DNA of 64,000 bases. Origin: Pseudomonas phage HPP-Temi. Position 1 is the stretch's first letter. Each line of letters starts with the position of its first letter. The DNA is taken from sequence record PP968062.1; one strand, written 5' to 3'. The notes under the pieces were generated by a model, which worked only from the letters and a program-made list of their open reading frames with translations, ran no database searches and had not been told where the DNA came from. Shown piece by piece: positions 3,682-45,278 of this stretch. The position numbers were made by a program, and so were the translations under genes.

Positions 3682-3764
3682 TCTTTTAATCCTTGACTTA
3701 GAAAGTTCATTGTACCATTGTGTAAGAATTTTTAGCTTGCCTCCCTTTGGGGAGGCTTATGCCG

Positions 3765-4253: not shown

Positions 4254-4260
4254 GTCTGTC

Positions 4261-26431: not shown

Positions 26432-26873
26432 TTAAAACTATCCTATCCAATCTCATCTCTACTGGACGCCCTTGACGCCTACTCCGTTCTTGACGAGGCT
26501 TATATCGATCCGTCGTTGATACTTCCGGATTTCTATAATCTCTTCCTCCACGTTTCCCGTGCGCAACACGCGTTTTACCTTTACCCTTCCGCGTGCTGCG
26601 CGTACGCTGTTTTTCTTCAGGGTTACCTCCTGATTCTTTACAGCGTCCATTGGCAATATTAACCTGACGCATTTGCTTCTCGAATCGATTAGCAAAACGG
26701 GTCATATTCTCATCCTGACTAGGATGAAGTTTTTTGGTCGGTTGAGAGTTGGATTGGTAAGACGTATCATTACCAACAGTAGTATCTTTTTCCTGGACGA
26801 CAATGTCGCCGGGATTCATTTGGGTTTCACTGAGCTCTCGCTCAACATGACTCCCGTGTGCACTCCAGAACAT
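26394..26873 (-). CDS. Highly basic small protein (159 aa; Arg/Lys-rich C-terminal half), possible DNA-binding/internal head protein
   Basis: EEKQRTRSTRKGKGKTRVAHGKRGGRDYRNPEVSTTDRYKPRQERSRRQGRPVEMR; directly downstream of the capsid gene. Confidence 0.45.
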   Translation of the reverse strand: MFWSAHGSHVERELSETQMNPGDIVVQEKDTTVGNDTSYQSNSQPTKKLHPSQDENMTRFANRFEKQMRQVNIANGRCKESGGNPEEKQRTRSTRKGKGKTRVAHGKRGGRDYRNPEVSTTDRYKPRQERSRRQGRPVEMRLDRIVLNGTDQPFPSGTH

Positions 26874-26907: not shown

Positions 26908-26939
26908 CACTGTAATATAGATTTGAAATATTTTTTAAT
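26908..26939 (-). promoter_or_regulatory. Candidate early-type promoter (gene strand: CATTAAAAAATATTTCAAATCTATATTACAGTG)
   Basis: TTTCAAA-N1-CTATATTACA motif upstream of gene 26394..26873. Confidence 0.4.
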
Positions 26940-32118: not shown

Positions 32119-33135
32119 ATGGAATTCATCATGTTCGGACAAGACGAAAATAATATCTGGTTAGAATACCCTAGTACTGGCTTTGAAGATATCGAAAACG
32201 CGCGTAAAGTCGCTAACAGTTTGGATAGCCTGGCATTTAAGGTACGCAGTGCCCCTGTAGCGTCGCTGGAAGCATTTTGTATTGCTTTTAATGCCATCGT
32301 AGGCGAAGACTTCAAACCCTCTAGAACGGTCTCTTTGGAGGGCTTTAGTGGGGCTCCGTCTCCTATGCATCATCTGGCTACTCGTATTACCCAACATAGT
32401 AACAACATGCACGGAGCAATTAACCTTGCTTTAGAAGATTTCAACAAAGATGCTCTAGCTAAGTTTAAAGAAATCGTTGATGGTTATCGGAAAGCCCGTG
32501 CTCAATTGGATCATGTGAAGACAGATCTTGAGCCTACTGATAGCGTCGTTAAGATCAATCACGAGCGCGTCTGGAAACTGTTTAACAAGAATAACAAATT
32601 CGTTAAACCCGAATCCATTAAAGAAGATGTGATGGATGTTGGTAAGATCGTAGGTACTATCAAAGATGCAGCTGTTAGACTTAGCTCTGGTCGCCCTGTT
32701 CAACTAGATCCCGCTAAGTACGAACTGATGATGAACACTTTCGTTGTGATTAAGGATAACTCCATTACGTTCGAGTCTCCTGAACCTCCGAAACCCAAAG
32801 ACGAATACAGTGCTGGTGACATCGCTTGGATCGTTGGTTGGAGTGTCATGTTTAACGTTGTTGGTCTTATCGGTTCTCTGATTTTCAAGAAGAAGACTGC
32901 TTCTGAAGCTGATCGGAAACGTGGCGTTAATGAAATGCTTGCTTTCATCAATACGATCAAAGGTTTCGATCGGAGTATCACTGAGATTGAAAGTGCAATC
33001 AAAGCACTACAGCAAACTGAAGAGAACAAAGAGATGTCAGCTATGCTGATCAATAGTGCTATCAAGCTTACCAAACATATCACAGACGTCACTTACGGTG
33101 CTGCTGTGTTGTTCACTAAGATTTCTAAGAGTTAA
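32119..33135 (+). CDS. Hypothetical protein with one TM segment (338 aa)
   Basis: Hydrophobic segment IAWIVGWSVMFNVVGLIGSLIF; followed by terminator GGCGAGG tttgg GCCTCGCC at 33145-33164. Confidence 0.5.
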   Translation: MEFIMFGQDENNIWLEYPSTGFEDIENARKVANSLDSLAFKVRSAPVASLEAFCIAFNAIVGEDFKPSRTVSLEGFSGAPSPMHHLATRITQHSNNMHGAINLALEDFNKDALAKFKEIVDGYRKARAQLDHVKTDLEPTDSVVKINHERVWKLFNKNNKFVKPESIKEDVMDVGKIVGTIKDAAVRLSSGRPVQLDPAKYELMMNTFVVIKDNSITFESPEPPKPKDEYSAGDIAWIVGWSVMFNVVGLIGSLIFKKKTASEADRKRGVNEMLAFINTIKGFDRSITEIESAIKALQQTEENKEMSAMLINSAIKLTKHITDVTYGAAVLFTKISKS

Positions 33136-33930: not shown

Positions 33931-34350
33931 CTATTTAATAGGTTTCTTGTACTTCCATTTGTACAGTTGGTGCAGGATGAAACTCAGAACACCTAAAGCC
34001 AGTACACCTGCAATAGCCGTACCGACGATCTCTTGGGGAGTGATTGCATTGAACTCGGTACCGAAAACAACCCGAGTAATGATAATGAGCATCAAACCGA
34101 TCAGAGTGGTGACCCAGAGACGCGGGTGCAAGGAACGACTCAGACGAAGACCTGGAACAGAAACACGTTCCATCCGAGTGGACCAGGTGTGGTTACGGTA
34201 GTACATCATGTCAGTGAAGTAATCACTGTAGATGTGCAGTAGTTCCCCACGCTGATCGCCGGTACCATGAGCCAAGCCATGGTAGTAGTAAATACCACCA
34301 TCTTCTTTGTGGGTGTAAAGTTCAGCGTTGTCTTTGGTATACATCGACAT
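33931..34350 (-). CDS. Membrane protein (139 aa, two C-terminal TM helices)
   Basis: LWVTTLIGLMLIIITRVVFG and IVGTAIAGVLALGVLSFIL hydrophobic helices. Confidence 0.5.
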   Translation of the reverse strand: MSMYTKDNAELYTHKEDGGIYYYHGLAHGTGDQRGELLHIYSDYFTDMMYYRNHTWSTRMERVSVPGLRLSRSLHPRLWVTTLIGLMLIIITRVVFGTEFNAITPQEIVGTAIAGVLALGVLSFILHQLYKWKYKKPIK

Positions 34351-34355
34351 TTTTA

Positions 34356-34622
34356 TTACTCCGGCATTCCAGTGTGCACAAGAGAATTGAAACGAACATC
34401 GAACGTGTCGTACATGTCGGCAGTCAGTTCTTCGAAGACTGGACTATCCATGAAGGATTCAAGTGCACGACGAGCCGCAAGACGCTTATCACCTTCACCA
34501 TTAGCTCCGGGATAAACCGAATTACCCTCACCTGGCTTAGCAAAGCCATCAAAAACATGTGACTCACCTTCACGGTCAGTCACAGTTGCTTTAACGGAAT
34601 AGCCTGCGTAACGGAGTCCCAT
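34356..34622 (-). CDS. Hypothetical small protein (88 aa)
   Basis: ORF in the early island. Confidence 0.4.
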   Translation of the reverse strand: MGLRYAGYSVKATVTDREGESHVFDGFAKPGEGNSVYPGANGEGDKRLAARRALESFMDSPVFEELTADMYDTFDVRFNSLVHTGMPE

Positions 34623-34864
34623 TAGTCATCCCATCCTTTTACTTCGTACCATAGACAGGCACGATTGTATTCAACAATGTAACCGTCTTTACGGAGAATT
34701 TCCGCTTGACGATCATTCATCTTCCCTTCAACAGGCGTGTTCTCGTTGCTGTAATCGAAGTTTACCTCTGAGTCGCCAGCGAGCGCCCGTTGCTTAATTT
34801 TAGCATGGATAGATTCCATACCGGCTTCTTTATAAAGAAGTTCACGCAGTTCTTGTAATGTCAT
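34622..34864 (-). CDS. Hypothetical small protein (about 80 aa from MTLQELREL...); translationally coupled (ATGA overlap) to the upstream gene
   Basis: Internal Met at 34864 overlaps the stop TGA of ORF 34861..35070, so the ORF-track start at 34981 is probably too long. Confidence 0.4.
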   Translation of the reverse strand: MTLQELRELLYKEAGMESIHAKIKQRALAGDSEVNFDYSNENTPVEGKMNDRQAEILRKDGYIVEYNRACLWYEVKGWDD

Positions 34865-35070
34865 GTAACTACCCCTACAATAAAGACTCGACTGATTTCG
34901 TTGAGATAAGCGAGTACTAGAAGAATACCTGACCAGATAGCGATATTCATTGTAGTACGCTTTTCTTCCAATCCAGGACAAGTGGAATTAACTATTCGAT
35001 GACAGAAAGCACCGAATAGACCAAGTCCCATCGCGACAAAGATGATGGTAAACCAACCAAGATAGATCAT
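34861..35070 (-). CDS. Small membrane protein (69 aa)
   Basis: Hydrophobic throughout (IIFVAMGLGLFGAFCHRIV...ILLVLAYL). Confidence 0.4.
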   Translation of the reverse strand: MIYLGWFTIIFVAMGLGLFGAFCHRIVNSTCPGLEEKRTTMNIAIWSGILLVLAYLNEISRVFIVGVVT

Positions 35071-35621
35071 TGCTGTTGTACCGGTGTCAGTTGTTTGAGA
35101 GCATTGATGATACGGTGAACAGTATCACGTGCCAGTTCTCGGGTATGGAAGTTATTGGATATTTGGTAACGCAGTTCGACTTCCCCAGTTTCAGAGTTAC
35201 GGTCGAAATCTTTTACGATGTATTCACTATCCAGAATAGCTTCCACCATTTCTTTGTTGAGGTCGAACTCAGCGATAGTTGGTGAAACCAAACGACCCTG
35301 GAGATTTCTGATTACCTCATTGCGGAATGCAATGGCGCCTTCGGCAATCTCCAGTCGCTCTTCGATGGCGATAAACGGATTCTTCCAGAGTTCGGTTTCC
35401 ATGGTAGGACGAACAGAGGCTTTCTCCCATGCAATGCACCAGTAGTACCAACGTTCTTGGATTTCTTCGTTGGCTTTATCGAATGCAGCTATCGCGTTTT
35501 TATTACGATGGCAATCCAGAGGACGAGTATCCTTCGGAAGCCAGGTGTCAGTCTTCTCGTGGTAAACGAAACGATCAACACCGGGAGTTACGGCTTGGAA
35601 TTCCTTCAATTTTTTATCCAT
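35067..35621 (-). CDS. Hypothetical protein (184 aa)
   Basis: ORF overlapping the downstream gene by 4 nt. Confidence 0.5.
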   Translation of the reverse strand: MDKKLKEFQAVTPGVDRFVYHEKTDTWLPKDTRPLDCHRNKNAIAAFDKANEEIQERWYYWCIAWEKASVRPTMETELWKNPFIAIEERLEIAEGAIAFRNEVIRNLQGRLVSPTIAEFDLNKEMVEAILDSEYIVKDFDRNSETGEVELRYQISNNFHTRELARDTVHRIINALKQLTPVQQQ

Positions 35622-35750
35622 GTGAAATAATACCTATTGGTTGATAGTATGTAAGAAGATTACGCGTTATTTCTTATTCCTACTGCTGGGTGTTTGCCCG
35701 AAACGCGCAATGCTTGAGACGAACTCTTGGGCGAAAAGAGATGGTATTTA

Positions 35751-35783
35751 GCCCCTACCTTCGGGTAGGGGCTTTATGCCGTT
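35751..35783. terminator. Hairpin GCCCCTACC ttcg GGTAGGGGC followed by TTTATGCCGTT
   Basis: Perfect 9-bp stem; member of the conserved element family. Confidence 0.55.
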
Positions 35784-36066
35784 AACCGACAATAAGACCC
35801 TCAAGCATTAGGGTTTCGGTGTCGGACGCAGGTTGAGTCAGACGAGTTACACGAATGTAGTTCGTCCAGTCACTCCTGTCATAACAACAGCTGCAACCAC
35901 GGACCTTGATGTTGACAGCTTCGATTTCGAAATCATCGAGCTTGATTTCTTTACCGAAGTGATCGACCATGCGTTGGAACAACTTACCGAAGGAGAACGT
36001 TTCGTACTCGCAATCGATGTGGAGGACATCGACAGTGTCCACCGGGGGATTGTAACTACTGCTCAT
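35782..36066 (-). CDS. Hypothetical small protein (about 94 aa from MSSSYNPP...; longer ORF-track start at 36108 overlaps the neighbour)
   Basis: Cys-rich (CEYETF...GCSCCYDRSDW). Start chosen to limit overlap. Confidence 0.4.
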   Translation of the reverse strand: MSSSYNPPVDTVDVLHIDCEYETFSFGKLFQRMVDHFGKEIKLDDFEIEAVNIKVRGCSCCYDRSDWTNYIRVTRLTQPASDTETLMLEGLIVG

Positions 36067-36394
36067 TAGCCATCTCCTTACGTTTGTTTTTGGCCCAGTT
36101 CTTTTCATACTTCGAACTGATGAATTTCGCAGCGCCTGCGTTCAGCCAGTAGCGTTCGCCTTTGAGATAGCGTTCACGTTTGGCACGGGTCAGGCGAAGA
36201 GGGTCGAACATGTCCTGCTGGTCACACATGTATCGATTCCGCAGGAAGCAGTTGTCGTTCAGAATGCGAACGCTGTACAACTGACCGAGTCGGCAATTCG
36301 CAAGAATTGCTTTCTCAGTACGCAGACGACGTTCGTATTCCTGGGCATCTGCTTTACGAGAACGAGGATGCTTTCTTCCGAGTTTCTGAGACAT
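36056..36394 (-). CDS. Highly basic small protein (112 aa), possible nucleic-acid binding
   Basis: K/R-rich (RKHPRSRK...KRERYLKGERYW...KNKRKE). Confidence 0.4.
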   Translation of the reverse strand: MSQKLGRKHPRSRKADAQEYERRLRTEKAILANCRLGQLYSVRILNDNCFLRNRYMCDQQDMFDPLRLTRAKRERYLKGERYWLNAGAAKFISSKYEKNWAKNKRKEMANEQ

Positions 36395-36405
36395 TGTGGT
36401 TTTTC

Positions 36406-36711
36406 CTATTCCGTTGGTTTACGAAAAATCTTATCATGGAAAGTCATCGCTAACACGACACCTACGGAGCCACCTAGTCCACTGGATATAATAGCGGGAA
36501 GACCCACTATTACAAATAGACCAATGGTGGTTAGCTCAAGGGTACTGATACCCCACGAGGTGAAGAAAGCTGCTTTTTTGTATCCATGAAAGATGTTTCT
36601 TTGTTGAAAGGTTTTTACAAAGGCGTAGATGAACGACGTGGCCGTACTTAACAGTAGTAATACCCAGACAGGTAGATCATGATTAATGTTAATCACTTCT
36701 CTTGTTCCCAC
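36406..36711 (-). CDS. Integral membrane protein (101 aa, about 3 TM)
   Basis: WVLLLLSTATSFIYAFV, TIGLFVIVGLPAIISSGLGGSVGVVLA hydrophobic segments. Confidence 0.45.
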   Translation of the reverse strand: MGTREVININHDLPVWVLLLLSTATSFIYAFVKTFQQRNIFHGYKKAAFFTSWGISTLELTTIGLFVIVGLPAIISSGLGGSVGVVLAMTFHDKIFRKPTE

Positions 36712-37721
36712 TTGGTAGGTTCACGTTTACTACGTTGGACTTTATGGATACCTTCCAATTGGTAACCACGGCCAGTTGCTTTGTAGCTGTGTTCCTGATC
36801 CACACGTGCATGGAAAGCCAGGAGGGCTTCGATCGGAGCTTCCACCGGGAAGTACTCGGTGTTGTTGCAGTCCCAACCGAATTCCCACACACCTTCGCGA
36901 ACTTCGTAGCTGTTATCGGTGAGGTAGGTGATGTTGATCGTGTGTGTAGTAGCATTGGCACCGTTGAAGAAAAACGAACCTTCGGTAGCACGAACATCAA
37001 TGCGACCATCATCGATGGTATCCTGATAGTAGAAGCCACGCTTGAAGAAGAACTGAAGCATTGCATTGAAGTAACTGTTCAATACAGCCACTGCGTTAGC
37101 ATCTTCGACTACCCATTTACCATCAACAATCTTGTTCAGATAGTCGCGGTCATGTTGGATACCGAAGTCATTCACGATATCGGCATACAGCTTGTGGTGT
37201 TGAGCAACTTCATACAGACGCTCCAGGGTAGCCCAACGGAGCACACCAGTGGGATGGAGACCCAGCATGATGCGACCGATGTTCCACATGCCAGCACCGT
37301 TGGCTTTGTAGCTCTCGTCCAGGTAGCCTTTGACTTGGGCACCGGGAGAGAGTTCGTCAGCCGGGAAACCAGATGCAGTACGAATGCGGATAACGTTCAG
37401 TACCGCTTCGGGTTCTTTCATGTCCAGCAGGTCAACGCCGAAGGTAGTCCAGCTACCACGGATCTTGTGCTGATACGCAACGCGAACGGTCCCACCGAAC
37501 GGAGTAACGAACCAACGGGCGTCTTCATTGATGACCATGTGGACACCACAGTTCCACAGCGCAGCCAGAGGATCAGTGGATGCCAGGATACGCTTGGTAT
37601 CGTTCTCTTCGCTTTCGGTAGCTTCAGGGCTGGCGCGGAGATGAGTCAAGAGGAACAGGATGGCGGAGTCGTTGGTTTGGGTATTGAGCATTGCACGAGT
37701 CAGGGATGCATTGATGATCAT
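36693..37721 (-). CDS. Hypothetical protein (342 aa), largest gene of the early island; possible enzyme
   Basis: Globular composition. Weak resemblances only (WNCGVHMV, EVREGVWEFGWD), not assignable. Confidence 0.5.
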   Translation of the reverse strand: MIINASLTRAMLNTQTNDSAILFLLTHLRASPEATESEENDTKRILASTDPLAALWNCGVHMVINEDARWFVTPFGGTVRVAYQHKIRGSWTTFGVDLLDMKEPEAVLNVIRIRTASGFPADELSPGAQVKGYLDESYKANGAGMWNIGRIMLGLHPTGVLRWATLERLYEVAQHHKLYADIVNDFGIQHDRDYLNKIVDGKWVVEDANAVAVLNSYFNAMLQFFFKRGFYYQDTIDDGRIDVRATEGSFFFNGANATTHTINITYLTDNSYEVREGVWEFGWDCNNTEYFPVEAPIEALLAFHARVDQEHSYKATGRGYQLEGIHKVQRSKREPTKWEQEK

Positions 37722-37736
37722 TTCGTAATTTCCTTT

Positions 37737-37937
37737 TTACAGAGTGTTGAGGGTGATGAAGGTATACTGTCCCAGGGCGAAAGCACCGAAGAGGCAGAAT
37801 CCGAATTGGGCTATATCCCGACCACCATTTTTCTCATTGGAACTGAGATAGGTGAGGACCCCGCAGCAGAAGCAGAGGATACCAAGGATGACGAACAGGG
37901 CATAATGGAAAATTCCTACAGTTTCACACATTTTCAA
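37737..37937 (-). CDS. Small membrane protein (66 aa, 2 TM)
   Basis: GIFHYALFVILGILCFCCGVLTYL and FGFCLFGAFALGQYTFI. Confidence 0.45.
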   Translation of the reverse strand: MKMCETVGIFHYALFVILGILCFCCGVLTYLSSNEKNGGRDIAQFGFCLFGAFALGQYTFITLNTL

Positions 37938-37982
37938 TTTCCTTTTTGCGTTATAAAAGAGACACGGTATAAAAATAAAAAA

Positions 37983-38000
37983 GGGGACCCGAAGGTCCCC
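37983..38000 (-). terminator. Rho-independent terminator (GGGGACC cgaa GGTCCCC, followed by TTTTTTATTTTTAT on the minus strand)
   Basis: Perfect stem plus U-tract immediately after the stop of 38006..38638. Confidence 0.7.
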
Positions 38001-38005
38001 TGGTG

Positions 38006-38638
38006 TTACGCGGCTACCTGAGTGTAGGCCAAAGCATTACACTTCGGCTTACTCGGAGAGACCTCACTGAAGAACATCACGCGATCGTTGATGTACTCGC
38101 GGGCCAGTTCTTCAGATTCGAAGAACATACCCATGGACAGTTTATCTTTCGCATCTTCCATTGCAACCGGCGTACCACGTGCTTCGATCACCACAGACCA
38201 GACACGACCACCGGTATCCATTACGGTTACCAGATGGAAGAAGATCTTGGTCGGATTAGGTAGAGCAGCGGTAGCGGGTTTGGACCACTCCGTTACAGTA
38301 CCCAGGGCCTGGACGGTCATGTCAGCAGTATTGCGCTGATGCATCCAACCTTCCACAGTCGGTACACCGTTTTTCAGGACGATGATATCATACCAGCTCG
38401 CGTTGTTACGTACGACACATCGTTCGTATTTACCACCGGCATTGACGTTACCCATGATCAACACATCGTGAAGCGGAACTTCGATGTGAGTGATCTTGGA
38501 GGTGTAATCAGGAATCAGACGATCATCGACTTTCACCCAGTTAGCTGCACGAGGATGCGCCAGTGTAGCACGAACAACGCCTTTGACAGCTTGTTCTTTG
38601 AGAGCAGCCATTACCAGAACTGCTTGAACGACGTCCAT
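38006..38638 (-). CDS. Hypothetical protein (210 aa)
   Basis: ORF; no motif recognised. Confidence 0.5.
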   Translation of the reverse strand: MDVVQAVLVMAALKEQAVKGVVRATLAHPRAANWVKVDDRLIPDYTSKITHIEVPLHDVLIMGNVNAGGKYERCVVRNNASWYDIIVLKNGVPTVEGWMHQRNTADMTVQALGTVTEWSKPATAALPNPTKIFFHLVTVMDTGGRVWSVVIEARGTPVAMEDAKDKLSMGMFFESEELAREYINDRVMFFSEVSPSKPKCNALAYTQVAA

Positions 38639-38822
38639 AATTACTCCTTAATGCATGTTTTCTATTTTGACAATATCCCACTGTGACAATTCAGTGTCAC
38701 GGTAGAACATTTGAAGTGCATCATCGATTCCCATTTGAGAGGGAGCCTCCCAGACGGTACCATTGTAACACGTGATTTTCCAGAGCATGACTACTCCATG
38801 TTAAAAGTTCTTAGGGGGCGAA

Positions 38823-40004
38823 TTATTTGATAACAACCGCTTCCGAGAGAGTTTCCATACTACCGATAACCAGTTTGGATTTCTCTTCATCGGGTTCTTC
38901 CATTGCTTCACGCAGGAGTTCACCGATAGTTTTGGGTTGAACGTCATCGCTGATTTCACGAGAACATGCCGAGTCTTCGAACATGTCGGTCATCCCGAAG
39001 TCGTCATCAAAACCAGAGTCGTAGTACGAGTCTTCCATGGAGTAACTCGATTCATCGGAAGAGTCCGAAGACTCACCGTACATCTCGTCGAAGTCATGTT
39101 CCATTTCTTTCTCGTACATCTCGCTCATCGCTTTGTTATCTTCTTCCTGTGCTTTACGACGAGAAGTCTTGTAGAACGGCAGCAGGCGTTGCAGGACTTT
39201 ATGGAACTTCTTCTTGTTGATCAACCAGCTACTGGAATAACGAGACAGTTTTACTTCAGCTGCCTTGATAGTCGGATCAGCATACATCGCTGCTATCAAT
39301 TTCTCCAGATCGTACAGATGATCCTTCGAAGGGTTGGTATACGCGGGATGCTCTTGGAGAGCGAACATCACGAACGTACGCATGTCAGTGATGAAGTACT
39401 GGTTGTGGTGCTTGTTGATCTCGACGTAGACCGGATCGGTATGACGATGGTAGTCGAACTCTTCAGCCCATGTCAGGTTGCGAACCTTAGTGGGACGAGG
39501 ACCTTCTACCCAACGAACAGTCGGATGTTTCTCACGGATGTTCCAACCATGCATGCGGTCGTATTCAGTCGGTTCTTCTTTGAACCAGGTGAAGTTACCT
39601 TCGCCACGTTCGAGGATCTTTTTACACCAGCTAATGTTGATGCTGTACTTGCGTCCTTCGATCAAGTTGCAGGGTTTATCCAGAACAGCGACATAGCTGT
39701 CATGACCATTGGCCACGATACCAAGAACGGTAGCTTCGAAGGTTTCATAACGCTGACCGGGATACACGCGTTCATTTTCGTCCAGGAAACGGAGAGAACA
39801 GGACTCGAAGATTGCACGGGTACCAGCAGGGAAATGAGCGCGGCCGAAGGGGCTCTCGGCTTTACGTTCCTTGCGACGTTCGATAACCCATTCCAGTTTT
39901 TCTTTGGTCAGACGGGTGGTGGGTTCGCGATATTGTTTCATGGTAATTTCCTTTTTACATTTGGGTTTAGTTGAGTACATCTCAATGCATCCTTTCCAAG
40001 ACAC
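38823..40004 (-). CDS. Hypothetical protein (393 aa) with acidic Ser/Asp/Glu-rich C-terminal tail
   Basis: C-terminus ESSDSSDESSYSMEDSYYDSGFDDDFGMTDMFEDS. The + strand ORF 38937..39974 is antisense. Confidence 0.5.
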   Translation of the reverse strand: MSWKGCIEMYSTKPKCKKEITMKQYREPTTRLTKEKLEWVIERRKERKAESPFGRAHFPAGTRAIFESCSLRFLDENERVYPGQRYETFEATVLGIVANGHDSYVAVLDKPCNLIEGRKYSINISWCKKILERGEGNFTWFKEEPTEYDRMHGWNIREKHPTVRWVEGPRPTKVRNLTWAEEFDYHRHTDPVYVEINKHHNQYFITDMRTFVMFALQEHPAYTNPSKDHLYDLEKLIAAMYADPTIKAAEVKLSRYSSSWLINKKKFHKVLQRLLPFYKTSRRKAQEEDNKAMSEMYEKEMEHDFDEMYGESSDSSDESSYSMEDSYYDSGFDDDFGMTDMFEDSACSREISDDVQPKTIGELLREAMEEPDEEKSKLVIGSMETLSEAVVIK

Positions 40005-40036
40005 ATTGAGATGGGGTCTCCGAAGAGACCCATCTA

Positions 40037-40639
40037 TTATTCCTGGGTCAGTTCCCCAAGACGACCTTCAGCTTTCATACGGCGGATCTCCGAAATGGAC
40101 TTACCGTATTTTGCAGCCAGTTCCTTTACGGTGCCTTCAGGGGCAGGTTTACTCATGTTGCGAAAGTTTTGCTTGGCGATGTTGTAGTTTTGAGCCTGAA
40201 GAGTTCTCAGCTCAGAACGAACCAAAGCATTGCCAATGCACTGAGAGGTGAAAGTGACCATGAAAGACTTCAGCTTATCACGGTACGTATTGACCCATGC
40301 ACAGGATTCATCCACGTGCGTGCACATGTACTCGGCGGCTTTGGCATATTCCAACAAGCCGACTGCATCTGGTCCAACATCCTGGTAAACCATTTTGTTG
40401 AAAAGGCCCAGTGCGATATCAGATGCACGTTCAGCTGTAATGAAATCGATTGCATCATTAATGATCAACGTTTCCAGATCTTTGAACTTAACCGCATCGT
40501 TTTTGATCAACGCCAGCATAGCGTCAACCTTTACGGTCAACATCATGTCTTCATTACGACGATTGACCAGTTCATTGGTCTGCTCTTGGGTGAACACATG
40601 GTCCACGTTTTGGAAGACTTTCGACAGACGACTATCCAT
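40037..40639 (-). CDS. Hypothetical protein (200 aa) with C-terminal helix-turn-helix resembling sigma region 4
   Basis: C-terminus GTVKELAAKYGKSISEIRRMKAEGRLGEL resembles the sigma-70 region 4 / HTH pattern. Confidence 0.4.
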   Translation of the reverse strand: MDSRLSKVFQNVDHVFTQEQTNELVNRRNEDMMLTVKVDAMLALIKNDAVKFKDLETLIINDAIDFITAERASDIALGLFNKMVYQDVGPDAVGLLEYAKAAEYMCTHVDESCAWVNTYRDKLKSFMVTFTSQCIGNALVRSELRTLQAQNYNIAKQNFRNMSKPAPEGTVKELAAKYGKSISEIRRMKAEGRLGELTQE

Positions 40640-40812
40640 TTATTTATCCTCATTTACAGTGAATGCAAACATAGTACATTTCGGTTTAGCCGGATGTTGA
40701 CACCATTCCTTCGAAACCTTACCATCGGGTTTGGTCAGTTCATAATAGAACTCACCGCAAGCAGCAGCGAGTCCCATCAGAACTGCAAGAAAACCTACAC
40801 CTATTTTGGTTT

Positions 40813-41199
40813 TCACTTAGCGATGATCCGTTGTACGAAATGTTGGAGATTTGCAACCAGCCGATCGAACTCTTCCTCGGTCAGCTGATCACGATGAGAT
40901 TCCAGAAGTACTTCTACCTCCGGAAGAACGTTCAGAGCGATGTCCAGCTGGATACGCGAAATGAACTCTGCGACATCCAGTTCACGATCACGCCTGAGCC
41001 GATTCACCAACTTGCGATGTTGATCACTATTACGGTAGGCCGAGATCTTATCGATCAGGATGTCCGATATACTGCTTTCGATCTGCTGTACTTCGGTCGG
41101 ACCTTCTTCCTTGTAGGCTGCTTTTACCGCCAGAACAGCTGCTACTGCGGTAGAGGCAACAGCGACTGCAATGAGACCATACTTGATGTAGTTTTCCAT
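40813..41199 (-). CDS. Single-pass membrane protein (128 aa; N-terminal TM + helical domain)
   Basis: N-terminal GLIAVAVASTAVAAVLAV, then a charged helical region. Confidence 0.45.
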   Translation of the reverse strand: MENYIKYGLIAVAVASTAVAAVLAVKAAYKEEGPTEVQQIESSISDILIDKISAYRNSDQHRKLVNRLRRDRELDVAEFISRIQLDIALNVLPEVEVLLESHRDQLTEEEFDRLVANLQHFVQRIIAK

Positions 41200-41204
41200 G
41201 ATAT

Positions 41205-41531
41205 TTACTCCCAGCCCATTTCGGCTTTGAATTCATCAACGCGGGTATCAACGATGGCTTTATATTCGCCATCGCTATCACGCATCTCTAGTGCCATCTT
41301 GATACGAAGGCCCAGCAGGCGTCGTGAGAAATCCCTGCGCACCTTGAACTCTTGTTCACTTTCAGCGTTGATGCGAGTAATTTCGAAGAGAGCCTCCAGC
41401 TTCTTCGAGAACTCGTTGAAGTAGATCTTGTCCGTGACTTTCTGAGCCAGGATATCTACACCGATCATGATACCAGCTACGGCGAAACCAATGCCAACAC
41501 CGATCGCTACTTCTTTGAGAGTCTGGTTCAT
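41205..41531 (-). CDS. Single-pass membrane protein (about 108 aa from MNQTLKEVAIGVGIGFAVAGIMIGV...); same architecture as 40813..41199
   Basis: The internal Met at 41531 gives an N-terminal TM + helical domain. The longer ORF-track N-terminus (from 41690) overlaps a small upstream ORF. Confidence 0.4.
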   Translation of the reverse strand: MNQTLKEVAIGVGIGFAVAGIMIGVDILAQKVTDKIYFNEFSKKLEALFEITRINAESEQEFKVRRDFSRRLLGLRIKMALEMRDSDGEYKAIVDTRVDEFKAEMGWE

Positions 41532-41568
41532 TTTATATTTTCCTATTTTCGAATTTGGGGGATATTGC

Positions 41569-41721
41569 TTAACGCAGTTCAGCTTTGGGCTTTGCAGCTT
41601 CTTCCTTAGCTTTACGACGTTCTTCCAGCCAGTTGTTGTGGTACATGGCAACGCCAGCGAAGCCAACAACGGCGACGGCGATAAGGCCAAGTTCCAATGC
41701 GTTTTCTTTAATGAAGCTCAT
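41569..41721 (-). CDS. Small single-TM peptide (50 aa), not in ORF track
   Basis: Manual translation: MSFIKENALELGLIAVAVVGFAGVAMYHNNWLEERRKAKEEAAKPKAELR. Cognate stop TAA at 41569-41571. Confidence 0.35.
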   Translation of the reverse strand: MSFIKENALELGLIAVAVVGFAGVAMYHNNWLEERRKAKEEAAKPKAELR

Positions 41722-41726
41722 GGTGA

Positions 41727-42068
41727 TTATCCCTTCAGAGTGCTGTCGGCATTGAAGACATCGGGACCAACCGAGAGACTTCCCAGAAGATCCGGCGCGA
41801 GGTATACGGAGTTGAGAGTTTCGTAAACACCGGCAACGGCATCTACTTTGACCAGACTAGAACTACGCAGGGAAACCCACTCACCGTTGCGATAGGTTTC
41901 ACCGACCAGTACACGAACGTCATCGACGTCGTTACGGTGTGGCCACAGTACCTTGCCTTCCACCACTTCTACGTTACGTGCATGGTAGACCAGTTTACCG
42001 TTCATGCGCGCAACGATGTTCGGACGCTGAAGATCATCGATAACTTTAACAGCGACTGCCTTTTCCAT
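41727..42068 (-). CDS. Hypothetical protein (113 aa)
   Basis: ORF; no TM. Confidence 0.45.
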   Translation of the reverse strand: MEKAVAVKVIDDLQRPNIVARMNGKLVYHARNVEVVEGKVLWPHRNDVDDVRVLVGETYRNGEWVSLRSSSLVKVDAVAGVYETLNSVYLAPDLLGSLSVGPDVFNADSTLKG

Positions 42069-42079
42069 TTTGTATCTCC

Positions 42080-42235
42080 TTATTTAGTTACAAGCATTTC
42101 TTGGCCATTCGGCCCGATACGATGACCGAGGATAACCTCGGATTCTTTTTCAACTTTCGGAGCTTCATAGGAACCACCGTAAACAACAGCAGCACCCAGA
42201 ACCATACCAACCAGAATCATTACGATAGCTTTCAT
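42080..42235 (-). CDS. Small secreted/membrane peptide (51 aa), not in ORF track
   Basis: Manual translation: MKAIVMILVGMVLGAAVVYGGSYEAPKVEKESEVILGHRIGPNGQEMLVTK. Signal-peptide-like N-terminus; sits directly downstream of promoter motif 42267-42303. Confidence 0.35.
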   Translation of the reverse strand: MKAIVMILVGMVLGAAVVYGGSYEAPKVEKESEVILGHRIGPNGQEMLVTK

Positions 42236-42266
42236 GTTGAGTTTCCTTCTCAGAATAGGGGTTTAT

Positions 42267-42303
42267 CACATTTGTAATATACGTTTCAAATGGATTAAAA
42301 TGT
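42267..42303 (-). promoter_or_regulatory. Candidate early-type promoter (gene strand: CATTTTAATCCATTTGAAACGTATATTACAAATGTG)
   Basis: TTTGAAA-N2-TATATTACA motif, 30-70 nt upstream of the small ORF start at 42235. Confidence 0.45.
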
Positions 42304-42326
42304 ACATTCGAATGAGATAAAGGAAA

Positions 42327-42342
42327 GGGCTCCTAAGAGCCC
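42327..42342 (-). terminator. Hairpin GGGCTC ctaa GAGCCC after the stop of 42349..42630
   Basis: Short GC stem immediately after the stop codon, followed on the minus strand by CTTTCCTTTATCTC. Confidence 0.4.
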
Positions 42343-42348
42343 ATCCAG

Positions 42349-42630
42349 TTACAGCTTGTTGAGGAACTTGCGGATCTCTTCACGCAGCTCGCGCAGAGTT
42401 GCGGTCATGAGGATCTTTTCTTCTGCATCGCTGATCAGCCTTTCAGCCAGCCCTTCCAGTTCGATCTTGCGTTCGTCACTGGTGTAATGAGTCGGCAGAC
42501 GATCGTTTGCATCGCGCAGTTGTTGCAGAATTTCTTCCGCGGTGTTTTCGTCGGTCCAGGTGATAGCGATCATAGAGAGAACGCCACCGATGAGAACGCA
42601 GCCGAGACCTTTAGCGATATTGGAAAACAT
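42349..42630 (-). CDS. Single-pass membrane protein (93 aa)
   Basis: N-terminal TM GLGCVLIGGVLSMIAITW + helical domain. Confidence 0.45.
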   Translation of the reverse strand: MFSNIAKGLGCVLIGGVLSMIAITWTDENTAEEILQQLRDANDRLPTHYTSDERKIELEGLAERLISDAEEKILMTATLRELREEIRKFLNKL

Positions 42631-42658
42631 GGTAAATCCTTACAGTTGGAAGTATATG

Positions 42659-42859
42659 TTAAGAGGTTGCTTCTTCGGGAGTAGCTTCGGTCGGTTCCGA
42701 TTCCGGAGTAGCGGGCGCTTCGGTTTCAGCCTCGGGTTCTGTGGCGGGGGTTTCAGCTTCCACCGGTTCCGCAGACAGGGTATCATACAACTTGTAAGCA
42801 GCGGTACCCAGAGCGAGGACAGCTGCAACAGCACCAGAGGCGATCAGAATCTTTTTCAT
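42659..42859 (-). CDS. Small single-TM protein with acidic E/P/T/A-repeat tail (66 aa)
   Basis: MKKILIASGAVAAVLALGTAAY..., then EPVEAETPATEPEAETEAPATPESEPTEATPEEATS. Confidence 0.45.
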   Translation of the reverse strand: MKKILIASGAVAAVLALGTAAYKLYDTLSAEPVEAETPATEPEAETEAPATPESEPTEATPEEATS

Positions 42860-42873
42860 GGGCGGTTTTCCTT

Positions 42874-43203
42874 TTAAGGCAGGTCTTTGTATATGACCTG
42901 TTTGATGTAATGGTCGATCCGCGGTTCAGCGGTCTTCCTGATTGGTTCGTATTCCTTGGAGAGGATTACGGTTACTTCCTCCCAACAAGCATCACGTAAT
43001 AACTCGTAACGCTTCTCGGGAGTTCCAACAAGGTACTGGCTCCTACGGAGCAAGACACAGTGATAGCTATCAATAATCTTACCAGCATCATTAACAACCT
43101 TGTTCACCATGTCGATATGGCGCTGCATCAGATAGGCAGTTCCAGCACAACAGGCTACAACCACGCCAGTCACTACAGCGCCGATGACGTAGACGGTTCT
43201 CAC
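42874..43203 (-). CDS. Single-pass membrane protein (109 aa), apparent GTG start overlapping the upstream stop
   Basis: N-terminal TM VIGAVVTGVVVACCAGTAYL. The rev-comp of 43201-43203 is GTG, inside a GTGA overlap. Confidence 0.4.
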   Translation of the reverse strand: MRTVYVIGAVVTGVVVACCAGTAYLMQRHIDMVNKVVNDAGKIIDSYHCVLLRRSQYLVGTPEKRYELLRDACWEEVTVILSKEYEPIRKTAEPRIDHYIKQVIYKDLP

Positions 43204-43295
43204 GAACCTACTACTTCGTCGTAGATGGCACCTGCAATGTTCATTGCCATGATACCAACGGTTACCACGAAGACGGTCTTGAAGAGAGTGTTCAT
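43200..43295 (-). CDS. Tiny hydrophobic peptide (31 aa), not in ORF track
   Basis: Manual translation: MNTLFKTVFVVTVGIMAMNIAGAIYDEVVGS. ATGA overlap with the upstream peptide gene. Confidence 0.3.
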   Translation of the reverse strand: MNTLFKTVFVVTVGIMAMNIAGAIYDEVVGS

Positions 43296-43402
43296 ACTTG
43301 TTCTCCTTGAGCAGCGTTGAAGACTTCGTCTACAGCCCAGCAGGCAGCGTTGACGACGATGATGCAAGCAGCGAGTTTAACACAGAAACGTGCAAGGTCC
43401 AT
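43292..43402 (-). CDS. Tiny hydrophobic peptide (36 aa), not in ORF track
   Basis: Manual translation: MDLARFCVKLAACIIVVNAACWAVDEVFNAAQGEQV. Start about 35 nt downstream of promoter motif 43436-43469. Confidence 0.3.
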   Translation of the reverse strand: MDLARFCVKLAACIIVVNAACWAVDEVFNAAQGEQV

Positions 43403-43435
43403 GGTGAATCTCCTTGATTTGATTGGCTATTATCA

Positions 43436-43469
43436 CACTTGTAATATAGCCTTTAAATTGGTTTGAATG
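43436..43469 (-). promoter_or_regulatory. Candidate early-type promoter (gene strand: CATTCAAACCAATTTAAAGGCTATATTACAAGTG)
   Basis: TTTAAA-N2-CTATATTACAAG; best match to the window consensus. Confidence 0.45.
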
Positions 43470-43476
43470 TAATCGG

Positions 43477-43911
43477 TTAAACTACCGACTTGCGGGTAAT
43501 GCGTTCGATCAGGTTCTGATCAGTGATGAAGTGACCCAGTACACGACCGATGATATCATCGGCCATGTGTTCGTTGTGGATGTTCACATCAGTGCACAGG
43601 TTGTTGATCAGGCCAGCTTGGCGCTGAAGACCTTGAGTGTTAGCGATGGACTTCTTGCGATATTCCTTGATCACTTCAACGAACTGACGTTCACCGGTAA
43701 TGAAGCGACTGTTCAGACTGGAATAACGCAGGATGTTTTCCATCTTGCCGATCATGTTGTCCATGGTCGACATGTGCCACTTCCAGATATCGGACTTGAT
43801 ATCCTTGGCCAGTTCACGTTGATGGTTCATGTAGATGGCATAAGACATGTAAGCGATGAAGGCGATTACACTCAGGGCTACGATTACGTTGATTGCGATA
43901 TTCATTTTCAA
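43477..43911 (-). CDS. Single-pass membrane protein (144 aa)
   Basis: N-terminal TM NIAINVIVALSVIAFIAYMSYAIYM. Confidence 0.45.
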   Translation of the reverse strand: MKMNIAINVIVALSVIAFIAYMSYAIYMNHQRELAKDIKSDIWKWHMSTMDNMIGKMENILRYSSLNSRFITGERQFVEVIKEYRKKSIANTQGLQRQAGLINNLCTDVNIHNEHMADDIIGRVLGHFITDQNLIERITRKSVV

Positions 43912-43978
43912 TTTCCTTTTGGGTTGGAGTGAAGCGACATAAAGCCCTGATCGGAATGACCAGGACTTTTAAGTTTGG

Positions 43979-44452
43979 TTAAGCAAGGGCCGCCATCCAG
44001 GGCGGTACAACGACCACCATCTCGTTTGGGATATGACCGCTGAATAGTTCTAATGCTTGTTTCACATCAGGCCATTTCAACATGCCGTTTCCGCAACCGA
44101 GCGGGGGTACAACGATCTTCCACTTAGGGTCGATCCCATCTTCTACATCAATGTTGTCGACGATCCATTGAAGACCGTCATTGATGTAGCTTAACTGTGA
44201 ATCATCTTGCCACCGATCTTTAGTCGGGAACATCATGTAACGTTTACCATCATCACCTAGATAGATGGCTGGGTTACCGATTGTGATGATACGGTACTTG
44301 CAGTCATGCTTGTACTTCTGATACAGCTCGGGGAACTTATCGCGAAACCTCTCGGCTAGACCAGTTCCCATTACGCCTCGGGTGTTAACAGTGATAAGGT
44401 AAAGATCCCCAGGCTCTTTAAAGATGTCTTTACCTATTACGAATTCAGCCAT
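43979..44452 (-). CDS. Macrodomain protein, TARG1/OARD1/DarG-like (putative ADP-ribosyl hydrolase; candidate anti-defence factor)
   Basis: LYLITVNTRGVMGTGLAERFRDKFPE parallels the TARG1 N-terminal motif (C-x-MGAGIA-x-x-FK-x-KF), and VVPPLGCGNGMLKWPDVKQALELF parallels the TARG1 region (MPRIGCGLDRLQWENV). Length 157 aa fits a stand-alone macrodomain. Confidence 0.6.
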   Translation of the reverse strand: MAEFVIGKDIFKEPGDLYLITVNTRGVMGTGLAERFRDKFPELYQKYKHDCKYRIITIGNPAIYLGDDGKRYMMFPTKDRWQDDSQLSYINDGLQWIVDNIDVEDGIDPKWKIVVPPLGCGNGMLKWPDVKQALELFSGHIPNEMVVVVPPWMAALA

Positions 44453-44521
44453 AGTGAATGGCTCCTTTGCCCTACAAAAATCTAATGGTCATGAGACCAC
44501 AACTCATCAGATTGTGCAAGA

Positions 44522-44686
44522 TTAGGCGAACTCGTTTACCGCCTTTTTTACTGCTATAGTTAGGGTAATTGCAGCGGTTATCATCGCGAGTCCAGCGGTT
44601 GCATATTGGAGCAGTTCACGGTTGTGCGCATACTCGCGTCTGGATTTCTCGTTGTCTTCGTGGGACTTTTTGTGATCGTAGAACAT
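44522..44686 (-). CDS. Small single-TM peptide (54 aa), not in ORF track
   Basis: Manual translation: MFYDHKKSHEDNEKSRREYAHNRELLQYATAGLAMITAAITLTIAVKKAVNEFA. Confidence 0.3.
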   Translation of the reverse strand: MFYDHKKSHEDNEKSRREYAHNRELLQYATAGLAMITAAITLTIAVKKAVNEFA

Positions 44687-44695
44687 GATGTATCC

Positions 44696-44839
44696 TTAGA
44701 GACCGTTAAAGATCAAAGTGAGAATCAAAGCAACTGCAAAGGTAGCGATTACGCCTTCGAGTGTAATCCAGCTCGGAGGTGTGTTGGGGTCATTACGCTT
44801 TTCACGGGGGAACATTTCTTCCTTAGCTTGTTCTTGCAT
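44696..44839 (-). CDS. Small single-TM peptide (47 aa), not in ORF track
   Basis: Manual translation: MQEQAKEEMFPREKRNDPNTPPSWITLEGVIATFAVALILTLIFNGL. About 30 nt downstream of promoter motif 44868-44900. Confidence 0.3.
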   Translation of the reverse strand: MQEQAKEEMFPREKRNDPNTPPSWITLEGVIATFAVALILTLIFNGL

Positions 44840-44846
44840 AAAGCAC

Positions 44847-45278
44847 CTAATAGAACTGGTTTATTCCCTCTTGTGATATAGGGTTTAAAATGCTTTGAAT
44901 GCAAGGTGGACATTCACGCAGTTCTATAATCAACGCTTCTATGTTACCTTCTTCATTACAATACGTTTGTACATTAGTTATTTCCCCATTTAGACTATTG
45001 AATGCTAGCCTGTGGTGATGATACAGATCTCTGAAGTGCCCTTCAAAGTAACTAGCCGATACCGGATAACGCTGGAGTTCCATTAGGATGTATTGATAAC
45101 CCTTATTGAACTCTTGGGCATTATGGTTGTAAATGAAGTTGTGTTGCAGTTTGATGTATTCAGTTGCCAAAGAGTACAGATGGTTTATTACATCCATGTT
45201 GAGGTCAATGAACCCCTTTAAAGATCCAATATAGTTGTATGACCATACGTGGTCAATACGAAAGAGCACGTTCTGCAT
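44847..45278 (-). CDS. Hypothetical protein (143 aa)
   Basis: ORF; His/Tyr/Asn-rich; preceded by terminator hairpin 45300-45321. Confidence 0.45.
   Translation of the reverse strand: MQNVLFRIDHVWSYNYIGSLKGFIDLNMDVINHLYSLATEYIKLQHNFIYNHNAQEFNKGYQYILMELQRYPVSASYFEGHFRDLYHHHRLAFNSLNGEITNVQTYCNEEGNIEALIIELRECPPCIQSILNPISQEGINQFY
44868..44900 (-). promoter_or_regulatory. Candidate early-type promoter (gene strand: GCATTCAAAGCATTTTAAACCCTATATCACAAGAG), embedded in the 3' end of ORF 44847..45278
   Basis: TTTTAAA-N3-CTATATCACAAG motif. Confidence 0.4.

Follow-up and report, generated by a model that had tools for sequence, protein, structure and literature searches.

A conserved, promoter-organised block of small membrane-protein genes in the phiKZ-like jumbo phage HPP-Temi

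Small membrane proteins produced early in infection are already known as a kind of phage gene product. The Imm and Sp proteins of phage T4 are small (83-97 amino acids, aa) early inner-membrane proteins of superinfection exclusion, which the phage does not need in the laboratory and whose target is the envelope, and T5 Llp and the Cor-type proteins are receptor-blocking phage lipoproteins. Bacteria possess small membrane regulators of fewer than 60 aa, which carry a single helix, are often missed by annotation and bind larger membrane proteins (PMC12648545). The phiKZ lysis cassette is formed by gp141-gp144, in which gp142 is a proven (class III) holin beside the endolysin gp144 and gp143 is a regulator. 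Transposon sequencing has placed phiKZ orf1-orf20 in a contiguous non-essential region (orf184-304 together with orf1-20), which is roughly what the smaller phage EL is without and for which the authors speculate on an anti-defence locus (PMC12676376). Nucleus-forming jumbo phages begin infection in a lipid vesicle, and most of their ~200 dispensable genes have no assigned role. The present report describes an 11-kb island of minus-strand genes (positions 33931-44839) in a 64,000-nucleotide (nt) stretch of Pseudomonas phage HPP-Temi (PP968062.1), hereafter the window, and in particular the battery of 13 small membrane proteins encoded at its right end (40640-44839).

The island is an authentic block of accessory genes in a jumbo phage of the phiKZ-like, nucleus-forming kind: it is real, conserved, organised by promoters and rich in membrane proteins. 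The battery proteins resemble T4 Imm and Sp in being small, in carrying a hydrophobic helix and in their presumed early expression and inner-membrane location, but they form one collinear block of 13 and no member has sequence or profile homology to Imm or Sp (Pfam, PHROG). Genes orthologous to PHIKZ010.1-023 and PHIKZ102-104, the early promoters and the small gene size are common to the island and the phiKZ non-essential region, whereas in HPP-Temi the blocks are contiguous and the run of membrane proteins is longer than that of phiKZ. The bitopic small membrane proteins and a 'holin' label on one island gene recall phiKZ gp141-gp144 and T4 RI/RIII; the island differs from the phiKZ lysis cassette in genomic place, promoter class and essentiality and has no endolysin or spanin nearby. 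The likeness to T5 Llp and Cor concerns a single gene (40640-40816), with a signal-like N-terminus, the sequence LAAAC, a short Cys-containing exported part and a place in a putative early operon, but the lipobox Cys is missing from its phiKZ and phiPA3 orthologues. Unlike the bacterial regulators, the island proteins are phage-encoded, clustered and probably expressed early. The open reading frames (ORFs) have been deposited as hypothetical proteins, and no description of their density, their cross-genus order, their promoter architecture or the five to six members unannotated in phiPA3 was found in the literature searched. A first-pass annotation, made without database searches, had described an early island densely packed with small proteins of a single transmembrane helix; the cross-genus collinearity, the union of two phiKZ blocks, the characterised genes inside and the annotation of the small ORFs in relatives were missed by it.

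DNA comparison returned matches to the island solely in Pseudomonas jumbo phages. The closest relatives are the Pawinskivirus genomes PA1C, PS119XW, HHBS36_1, phiLBG22 and phiHQ (86% DNA identity over 94% of the query), and the match to the phiKZ-group phages is restricted to the left 7.3 kb of the island, a pattern which points to a distinct relative of Pawinskivirus. By its sequence, the window belongs to a phiKZ-like nucleus-forming phage of the Chimalliviridae.

Thirty minus-strand genes were curated in 33931-45278, with ATG or GTG starts and all with a Shine-Dalgarno-like sequence. A codon-usage gene caller recovered 27 of them and made no extra calls. Length-greedy ORF calling was dropped in favour of this model, as it chose long antisense frames and lost true small genes. 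Long open frames on the plus strand (36702-38021, 38937-39974, 40169-40888 and 40831-41424; 197-439 aa) lie antisense to real genes; they are rejected by the codon model and are misleading for length-based calling. The six peptides translated by hand in the first-pass annotation (41569-41721, 42080-42235, 43200-43295, 43292-43402, 44522-44686 and 44696-44839) are all present on the minus strand, each with an ATG and a Shine-Dalgarno-like sequence. They are indeed absent from the ORF track then used, which has a 60-aa cut-off, but they are not novel as genes, all six being annotated as "hypothetical" in PS119XW. The proposed translational coupling was borne out by direct reading of the start/stop overlaps, namely ATGA at 43292-43295, 35067-35070 and 34861-34864, GTGA at 43200-43203 and 40813-40816, and TAATG at 34622. 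In all six peptides, as in nearly all other island genes, the ratio of non-synonymous to synonymous divergence (dN/dS; Nei-Gojobori method, PS119XW as reference) falls at 0.01-0.17. Judged by this substitution pattern, the six peptides are genuine genes under purifying selection, which, together with conservation across genera, upholds the small membrane-protein genes as real: where the annotation had allowed for a lack of conservation in related phages, homologues were found in PS119XW, phiPA3, Phabio and phiKZ. Synonymous divergence from PS119XW is ~0-0.03 in 40037-40816 and exceeds 2 in 41205-41531, 42349-42630 and 44696-44839; such swings among neighbouring genes are the signature of a recombination mosaic and indicate recent recombinational exchange within the island.

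A gene was called membrane-positive when at least one window of 19 residues reached a Kyte-Doolittle (KD) hydropathy of at least 1.6, and the summed Hessa free energy (dG) served as the second scale. Seventeen of the 30 curated genes are membrane-positive on both scales, and the dG values are bimodal, with -2.8 to +2.5 kcal/mol for these 17, at least 7.4 for the other 13 and an empty gap between. Each of the six hand-translated peptides has one hydrophobic 19-mer (KD at least 1.76, dG -0.4 to +2.0 kcal/mol). At 40640-44839, 13 of the 15 genes encode small membrane proteins; in the order of transcription (44839 to 40640) these are two tail-anchored peptides, then, after the macrodomain gene, seven membrane proteins and, after one soluble protein, four more. 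The 13 are bitopic proteins of 31-142 aa, ten with an N-terminal anchor, two tail-anchored and one secreted or anchored, and the flanking charges suggest that several of them may expose a short C-terminal tail to the periplasm. The earlier claim of more than 12 consecutive genes of this type thus holds as regards density but not as regards an unbroken run, the runs being of 2, 7 and 4 genes, with the macrodomain gene (43979-44452) and a gene for a soluble homologue of PHIKZ011 (41727-42068) between them. Likewise, the picture of a small single-helix island fits the right half (40640-44839), but in the left half (33931-40600) soluble proteins predominate and the four membrane proteins have 2-3 helices.

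The membrane-protein content stands out within the window (14 of 27 genes in the island against 6 of 44 outside, p=9e-4, by codon-model calls) and within PS119XW, where the control covered 214 of 301 kb: 15 of 30 genes in the homologous island against 30 of 266 in 200 kb elsewhere (odds ratio 7.9, p=1.7e-6). The difference persists among PS119XW genes of at most 150 aa (15/24 against 18/125, p=2.7e-6). Among 12 genes in a row, the island reaches 10 membrane genes and any other place at most 4. A hydrophobic segment is carried by 57% of the curated island genes, as against 14% of the ORFs of 30-150 aa that lie in other frames and are not genes. A second, smaller cluster was observed in PS119XW (NC_070882, 61.9-63.2 kb; gp074-gp078), encoding 62-100-aa proteins with 2-3 membrane helices and having an early promoter inside it at 62220, upstream of gp075.

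The island unites two blocks that lie apart in phiKZ. The equivalents of 33931-42235 in the left arm of phiKZ are PHIKZ023, 022, 019, 015, 016.1, 014, 013, an unannotated 57-aa ORF, 012, 011 and 010.1, and those of 43979-45278 are PHIKZ104, 102.1 and 102. In the window, in Pawinskivirus and in phiPA3, which belongs to another genus (Miltoncavirus), both blocks (PHIKZ102-104 and PHIKZ010.1-023) are contiguous, with a PHIKZ101-like structural gene on one side and the genes for helicase and capsid on the other. The phiPA3 order runs gp106 (PHIKZ101-like), gp107 (PHIKZ102-like), promoter, 46-aa ORF, 56-aa ORF, gp108 (macrodomain), promoter, 35-aa ORF, 34-aa ORF, gp109, 51-aa ORF, gp110, promoter, gp111, gp112, gp113 (PHIKZ012-like) and 60-aa ORF, followed later by gp122 (ΦKZ014-like) and gp126-128 (PHIKZ021-023-like). 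Eleven membrane genes occur in the same order in phiPA3, ten of them at E-values of 1e-12 to 5e-4 and the eleventh by position only, and the gene order is kept at a protein identity of 20-53% between the genera. Seven phiPA3 ORFs of 34-77 aa are unannotated (2559-2699, 2709-2879, 3562-3669, 3662-3766, 4117-4272, 5713-5895 and 7205-7438 of HQ630627 101221-119898, the piece labelled L016 below); six are homologous to window genes and 3662-3766 corresponds by position only. Several battery members are missing from the phiPA3 reference annotation and have therefore never been included in screens built on it.

Beyond these genomes the arrangement is kept in part, the gene order being conserved across Pawinskivirus, Miltoncavirus and Phabiovirus and partly in phiKZ. 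Phabio has a PHIKZ102-like gene, gp149 and gp150 (homologous to the two tail-anchored peptides) and a macrodomain gene, followed by N-terminally anchored proteins and a 52-aa PHIKZ010.1 homologue. In phiKZ the first tail-anchored peptide is kept with the macrodomain gene and most battery members are lost or replaced; in Noxifer, 8 of 18 genes at the equivalent place encode membrane proteins; and EL, with its small genome, keeps essentially the PHIKZ010.1-type peptide and a trio of gp13, a 46-aa protein and gp14. Alignments of the battery families reveal family-specific conserved motifs outside the hydrophobic helix, which argue for specific binding partners.

Early promoters were sought with a weight matrix built from 21 sites in the window, PS119XW, phiKZ and phiPA3, the consensus of which is cATT.AAA..taTTTAAA..CTATATTACAAatgTGAta. 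Three minus-strand sites, P1-P3, score 52-59 bits, and shuffled sequence gave 0-1 matches. P1 (44862..44901) has the octamer TATATCAC at 44873-44880 and 52-53 bits; P2 (43430..43469; 59 bits) and P3 (42263..42302; 52 bits) have the octamer TATATTAC at 43441-43448 and 42274-42281, respectively, with an extended 20-mer in common. All genomic matches, including that of the nuclear-shell gene chmA, lie 34-94 nt upstream of a start on the same strand. The phiKZ early promoters described in the literature are AT-rich, have an extended -10 and are T-rich in their upstream part. We take TATATTAC to be their published core. With their AT-rich consensus, TATATTAC-like -10 and upstream ATTCAAA / TTTAAA, P1-P3 have the features of phiKZ-type early promoters, to be recognised presumably by the virion RNA polymerase. 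P1 lies inside the PHIKZ102-like gene, at its 3' end, with 41 nt between it and the 47-aa gene downstream, and has orthologous sites at 12275 in PS119XW (L001), 2515 in phiPA3 (L016) and 2376 in phiKZ (L017); those of P2 are at L001 10844, L016 3514 and L017 3564. The counterparts of P3 are at L001 9682 and L016 4674 and, in phiKZ, at 4516, where the promoter precedes PHIKZ010.1 in the block relocated to the left arm. The positions of P1 and P2 are thus kept in PS119XW, phiPA3 and phiKZ and that of P3 in PS119XW and phiPA3. The first gene after each promoter encodes a membrane miniprotein in the window and in PS119XW, and the phiKZ counterpart of P2 precedes the soluble PHIKZ105.

The P1 unit comprises the 47-aa and 54-aa peptides, the P2 unit the 36-aa, 31-aa, 109-aa, 66-aa and 93-aa proteins, and the P3 unit the 51-aa peptide and a long operon through the PHIKZ011-014 homologues. 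An intrinsic terminator (42327..42342, minus strand; GGGCUC-UUAG-GAGCCC then UUUCCUUUAU) ends the P2 unit, and a strong one (37982..38001, minus strand; GGGGACC-UUCG-GGUCCCC then U6) is the probable end of the P3 unit. Between the 54-aa gene and the macrodomain gene lies a candidate terminator, a minus-strand hairpin with a U-run (44472..44519; -21.3 kcal/mol, z -2.3), which contains a terminator-like match at 44500-44485. A single early operon of the two tail-anchored peptides and the macrodomain gene was considered and is weakened by this hairpin and by the late expression reported for AdfM, the phiKZ macrodomain protein. No early promoter was detected in the weight-matrix scan for 43477-43905 or for the genes left of 38000. 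Thus, the statement that the genes sit behind early-type promoters can be retained, by inference, for 44839-44522 and 43402-38006 but not for 43477-43905, the macrodomain gene or the genes left of 38000, and the term "early island" is to be limited accordingly.

A further minus-strand terminator hairpin (43941..43969; 12-bp stem, -20 kcal/mol, z -3.6) carries the motif GGCUUUAUGUC, which also stands a short way upstream of early promoters, both in phiKZ and at window 26919. The motif GGCTTTATGTC at 43941-43969 (minus strand) recurs upstream of the promoters at window 26919 and phiKZ 2161, after terminator stems and directly before early promoters, and suggests a possible conserved terminator-promoter junction module. 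Outside the island, additional early-promoter matches of 44-49 bits were observed on the minus strand at window 26912-26919 and ~20614-20621, 46-48 nt upstream of the minus-strand genes 26394-26873 and 19872-20573.

The battery members belong to no Pfam family and match solely PHROGs of unknown function, and a word search of 5.8 billion proteins and a full HMMER scan of 1.84 billion representatives returned no relatives beyond phiKZ-like phages. The literature search gave no paper on PHIKZ011-013 and no discussion of these membrane proteins. As structure comparison likewise gave no function, the description of the battery as poorly characterised is borne out. An expanded paralogue family was considered and rejected, as all-against-all phmmer and blastp comparisons of the 30 sequences gave only weak matches of hydrophobic segments (best E 0.003-0.01), except that 41569-41721 and the PHIKZ012 family may have an N-terminus in common. 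The Avs5 activator JADA, gp316 of phage Pa36, was also considered, by name only, and the name gives no pointer to the island.

In the reading favoured here, to which we attach a probability of roughly 0.55, the battery proteins act in superinfection exclusion, envelope takeover or counter-defence; the first-pass annotation had suggested that they may remodel the host membrane, exclude superinfecting phages or inhibit host defences. The present reading is favoured by the company of the AdfM and ΦKZ014 orthologues and by dispensability in relatives. AdfM (PHIKZ104) is a nucleus-imported macrodomain protein that takes the ADP-ribose placed by DarT2 off phage DNA and so counters DarTG2 (PMC13309987), and ΦKZ014 is an abundant early ribosome-binding protein that is dispensable in PAO1 and required in the clinical isolate PaLo44 (PMC10914614, PMC12571901). 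The phiKZ counterparts of the P3 block fall in the non-essential region, roughly at orf1-orf20, and the whole context appears to fit an accessory or counter-defence role. Mechanistically, the injected virion RNA polymerase would transcribe the P1-P3 units within minutes of infection, and the products would insert in the host inner membrane or in that of the early-infection vesicle, the site of localised early translation. There they might act as small, protein-specific modulators of the envelope or of membrane-bound host proteins, with periplasmic contacts included, and the phage may do without the battery in a permissive laboratory host and profit from it under some conditions elsewhere, as with the neighbouring AdfM and ΦKZ014 orthologues.

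Several points weigh against this proposal. Early timing in HPP-Temi is deduced from promoter motifs and homologues, and the scan left 43477-43905 and the genes left of 38000 with no early promoter; AdfM, whose orthologue sits in the middle of the battery, is reported to be expressed late in phiKZ (PMC13309987). Membrane insertion and topology of the battery are predicted from hydrophobicity alone. The Pfam, PHROG, HMMER and structure searches gave no similarity to known exclusion, anti-defence or envelope-targeting proteins, and the literature searched contains no functional assay of any battery member. Lastly, collinearity over four genera exceeds what is expected of independent, fast-turnover accessory genes and hints at a joint function.

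That hint leads to the strongest rival, which we consider a minority possibility: the battery proteins may be subunits of one phage-built membrane assembly, such as a pore, a tether or a ribosome-docking device, in the early-infection (EPI) vesicle or in the inner membrane at the injection site. The eleven-gene order kept between genera at such low protein identity, the translational coupling of the 36-aa, 31-aa and 109-aa genes, the family-specific motifs and co-transcription behind positionally conserved early promoters would all agree with such an assembly, and the vesicle is a lipid compartment with localised early translation at which the gp14 and gp22 homologues gather. Yet the phiKZ homologues checked sit in the transposon-tolerant region, phiKZ has split the block and lost or replaced most members, EL is without nearly all of them while both phages still form vesicle and nucleus, and the vesicle arises before any phage protein is made. 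A more specific form, somewhat less probable still, is a joint machine built in the first minutes on or beside the vesicle, which might, for example, form a pore for exchange, tether ribosomes or mRNA, or hand the genome over to the nascent nucleus. Both tail-anchored peptides would belong to it, together with the coupled 36/31/109-aa trio and the 51-aa PHIKZ010.1 peptide, which is conserved universally. If this is true, membrane components made by the phage would for the first time have been identified for the early-infection vesicle.

A part in lysis or its timing, as holin, antiholin, spanin-like protein or factor of lysis inhibition, is improbable for the block and conceivable for single members. 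The PHROG label 'holin' on 36406-36711, given also in relatives, the resemblance of small N-terminally anchored bitopic proteins to T4 RI-type antiholins and the signs of lysis inhibition in phiKZ at high multiplicity point in this direction; against it, phiKZ has its cassette with a proven holin at gp141-gp144, the spanin of PS119XW is ~30 kb away, the island holds no endolysin or spanin neighbours, the units have early rather than late promoters, and the phiKZ holin gene orf142 appears essential while orf1-orf20, the P3-block counterparts, are not. On the favoured reading, the battery is not the lysis system. The view that the small ORFs are mere chance frames, or functionless remnants in decay, is the least credible of the alternatives, with a probability close to nil. 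Some are very short (31-54 aa), the same 14% of ORFs in non-coding frames also carry a hydrophobic 19-mer, and 37737-37931 has no homologue; but in every peptide the synonymous changes exceed the non-synonymous ones by far, phiPA3, Phabio and phiKZ preserve the ORFs with their lengths and motifs, and ribosome-binding sites (RBS) are present; the unique 64-aa ORF alone is still unverified. These sequence comparisons refute the chance reading for the six peptides translated by hand. Under the favoured reading of exclusion, takeover or counter-defence as under the others, the island offers a compact testable set of about a dozen tiny real membrane proteins with early promoters and two proven host-interaction genes alongside. 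The Cas13, antisense and transposon tools available in these phages can evidently be turned on them, whether they serve in exclusion, in the inhibition of defences or in the vesicle. Overall, the island is a well-defined lead and no surprise.

The individual genes, all on the minus strand, are described in the order of transcription. The upstream border is formed by a soluble 143-aa PHIKZ102 homologue (44847..45278), assigned by homology, the 3' end of which carries P1; the flanking 461-aa gene is a PHIKZ101 homologue. The first tail-anchored peptide, TA1 (44696..44839; 47 aa, KD 2.31, dG -0.36, dN/dS 0.12), ends in ...IFNGL; its homologues are PHIKZ102.1 (45%), the unannotated 46-aa phiPA3 ORF (E 2.6e-7) and Phabio gp149, with a profile match to phrog_34982, and the C-terminal NG is invariant in a conserved ...IFNG[LFI] end. 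The second, TA2 (44522..44686; 54 aa, KD 1.76, dG 0.85, dN/dS 0.06), shows 22 synonymous and 11 non-synonymous differences from PS119XW, has homologues in the unannotated 56-aa phiPA3 ORF (E 2e-12) and Phabio gp150 (E 2.6e-10), and has the conserved motif HN(R/K)(D/E)...TA..A..T...K. The soluble macrodomain protein (43979..44452; Pfam Macro PF01661, 30.6 bits against a cut-off of 22) is the syntenic orthologue of PHIKZ104/AdfM (61% identity; phiPA3 gp108, 67%) and keeps the catalytic Asn23 (...LITVN23...), the residue changed in the inactive AdfM mutant N23A (PMC13309987). It is followed by a 142-aa protein (43477..43905; KD 2.34, dN/dS 0.08) with an N-terminal membrane helix and a helical domain, which occurs in the Pawinskivirus lineage only (one match among the 1.84 billion representatives) and whose single-sequence AlphaFold2 (AF2) model was too poor for use.

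The P2 unit begins with the 36-aa membrane peptide (43292..43402; KD 2.14, dN/dS 0.01), with 14.5 synonymous and 1.5 non-synonymous differences from PS119XW and an unannotated 35-aa phiPA3 homologue (E 3.5e-9; common motif FC.KL...NAA.WAVD). The start of the 31-aa membrane peptide (43200..43295; KD 1.86, dN/dS 0.06; 14.5 synonymous and 5.5 non-synonymous differences) overlaps the preceding stop (ATGA), and its phiPA3 counterpart, by position only, is the overlapping unannotated 34-aa ORF. Next come a 109-aa protein with an N-terminal membrane helix and a GTG start overlapping the preceding stop as GTGA (42874..43203; KD 2.13, dN/dS 0.12), homologous to phiPA3 gp109 (E 1.6e-5); a 66-aa protein that begins with a signal or anchor (MKK...) and ends in an acidic tail rich in Pro, Thr and Glu (42659..42859; KD 1.99, dN/dS 0.37), with an unannotated 51-aa phiPA3 homologue (E 7e-6); and a 93-aa protein with an N-terminal membrane helix (42349..42630; KD 2.08, dN/dS 0.10), homologous to phiPA3 gp110 (E 1e-11) and matching phrog_25105.

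The P3 unit opens with the 51-aa membrane peptide of the PHIKZ010.1 family (42080..42235; KD 2.31, dN/dS 0.04), a family found in 72 Pseudomonas chimallivirus records including phiPA3 (gp111, 53%), Phabio, Psa21 and EL; its tail ILGHRIGPNGQEMLVTK is identical in phiKZ despite a diverged helix. The soluble 113-aa PHIKZ011 homologue (41727..42068; 83%), identified by homology, precedes a 50-aa peptide with an N-terminal membrane helix (41569..41721; KD 2.19, dN/dS 0.17), which has no phiPA3 counterpart and whose N-terminus is similar to the PHIKZ012 family (phrog_27375, E 1.7e-5), and a 108-aa protein with an N-terminal membrane helix (41205..41531; KD 2.19, dN/dS 0.13; weak match to phiPA3 gp112, E 5e-4). 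The 128-aa PHIKZ012 homologue (40813..41199; 81%) has, by homology and an AF2 model, an N-terminal membrane helix and a four-helix domain (pLDDT 75-92), a generic fold for which no PDB match was found at E<1. The 58-aa protein (40640..40816; KD 1.92), with an N-terminal signal or anchor and the conserved motif ELTKPEGKVSKE...C...KC, is probably a secreted or anchored mini-protein with a disulfide. Its homologues are unannotated, namely a 57-aa ORF in phiKZ (77%; NC_004629, L003 5472-5645) and the 60-aa ORF in phiPA3 (E 4e-7). A LAAAC lipobox is present in the window and PS119XW, and the Cys is missing in phiKZ (TTAG) and phiPA3 (SVAV); lipidation is therefore no feature of the family, and a lipoprotein reading was rejected; the two other Cys are conserved. 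Further along the operon, the soluble 385-aa ΦKZ014 orthologue (38823..39980) is 80% identical over 372 aa and has homologues in 68 phage records. A soluble 46-aa protein accompanies the gp13 and gp14 homologues in phiKZ (PHIKZ016.1, 36%) and in EL, where an unannotated 46-aa ORF (NC_007623 82300-105300, L019 21899-22036) is 54% identical to window 38648-38788; its travelling with these homologues hints at a functional link to the ribosome-binding protein.

In the left half, a 64-aa ORF with two hydrophobic segments (37737..37931; KD 2.55, good RBS, positive codon score) lies just after the terminator at 37982-38001 and is an unverified gene. In PS119XW the corresponding gap is 90 nt as against 285 (195 nt shorter) and the ORF is absent, and no tblastn match at E<=1 was found in 50,697 phage records, so that it is likely to be a lineage-specific insertion. 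The gene labelled 'holin' encodes a 101-aa multi-pass membrane protein (36406..36711; 2-3 hydrophobic segments, phrog_7045 at E 1e-26, dN/dS 0.04) with homologues in phiKZ-like phages only (Noxifer, 51%). Its neighbours are PHIKZ015-like and other soluble proteins, with no endolysin or spanins among them, and a holin function was rejected on this context, the evidence being a single PHROG label and the phiKZ holin being gp142 elsewhere. The remaining features are a soluble 184-aa PHIKZ022 homologue (35067..35621; 94%), assigned by homology, the phiKZ counterpart of which, gp22, is among the earliest and most abundant proteins at the vesicle around the injected DNA; a 69-aa two-helix membrane protein of the PHIKZ019 family (34861..35070; 67%, KD 2.05 and 1.90, dN/dS 0.11); and, also by homology, a 139-aa PHIKZ023 homologue with two C-terminal membrane helices (33931..34350; 92%). 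At the left border of the island, the window has a plus-strand gene (32119-33135) for a 338-aa protein with one hydrophobic segment, and PS119XW has a different gene (gp139) and a DnaB-like helicase there. In phiPA3, the homologue of window 36056-36394 matches the plus strand (L016 11583-11822) where gp125 is annotated on the minus strand (11457-11744), and gp125 may therefore have been called on the wrong strand.

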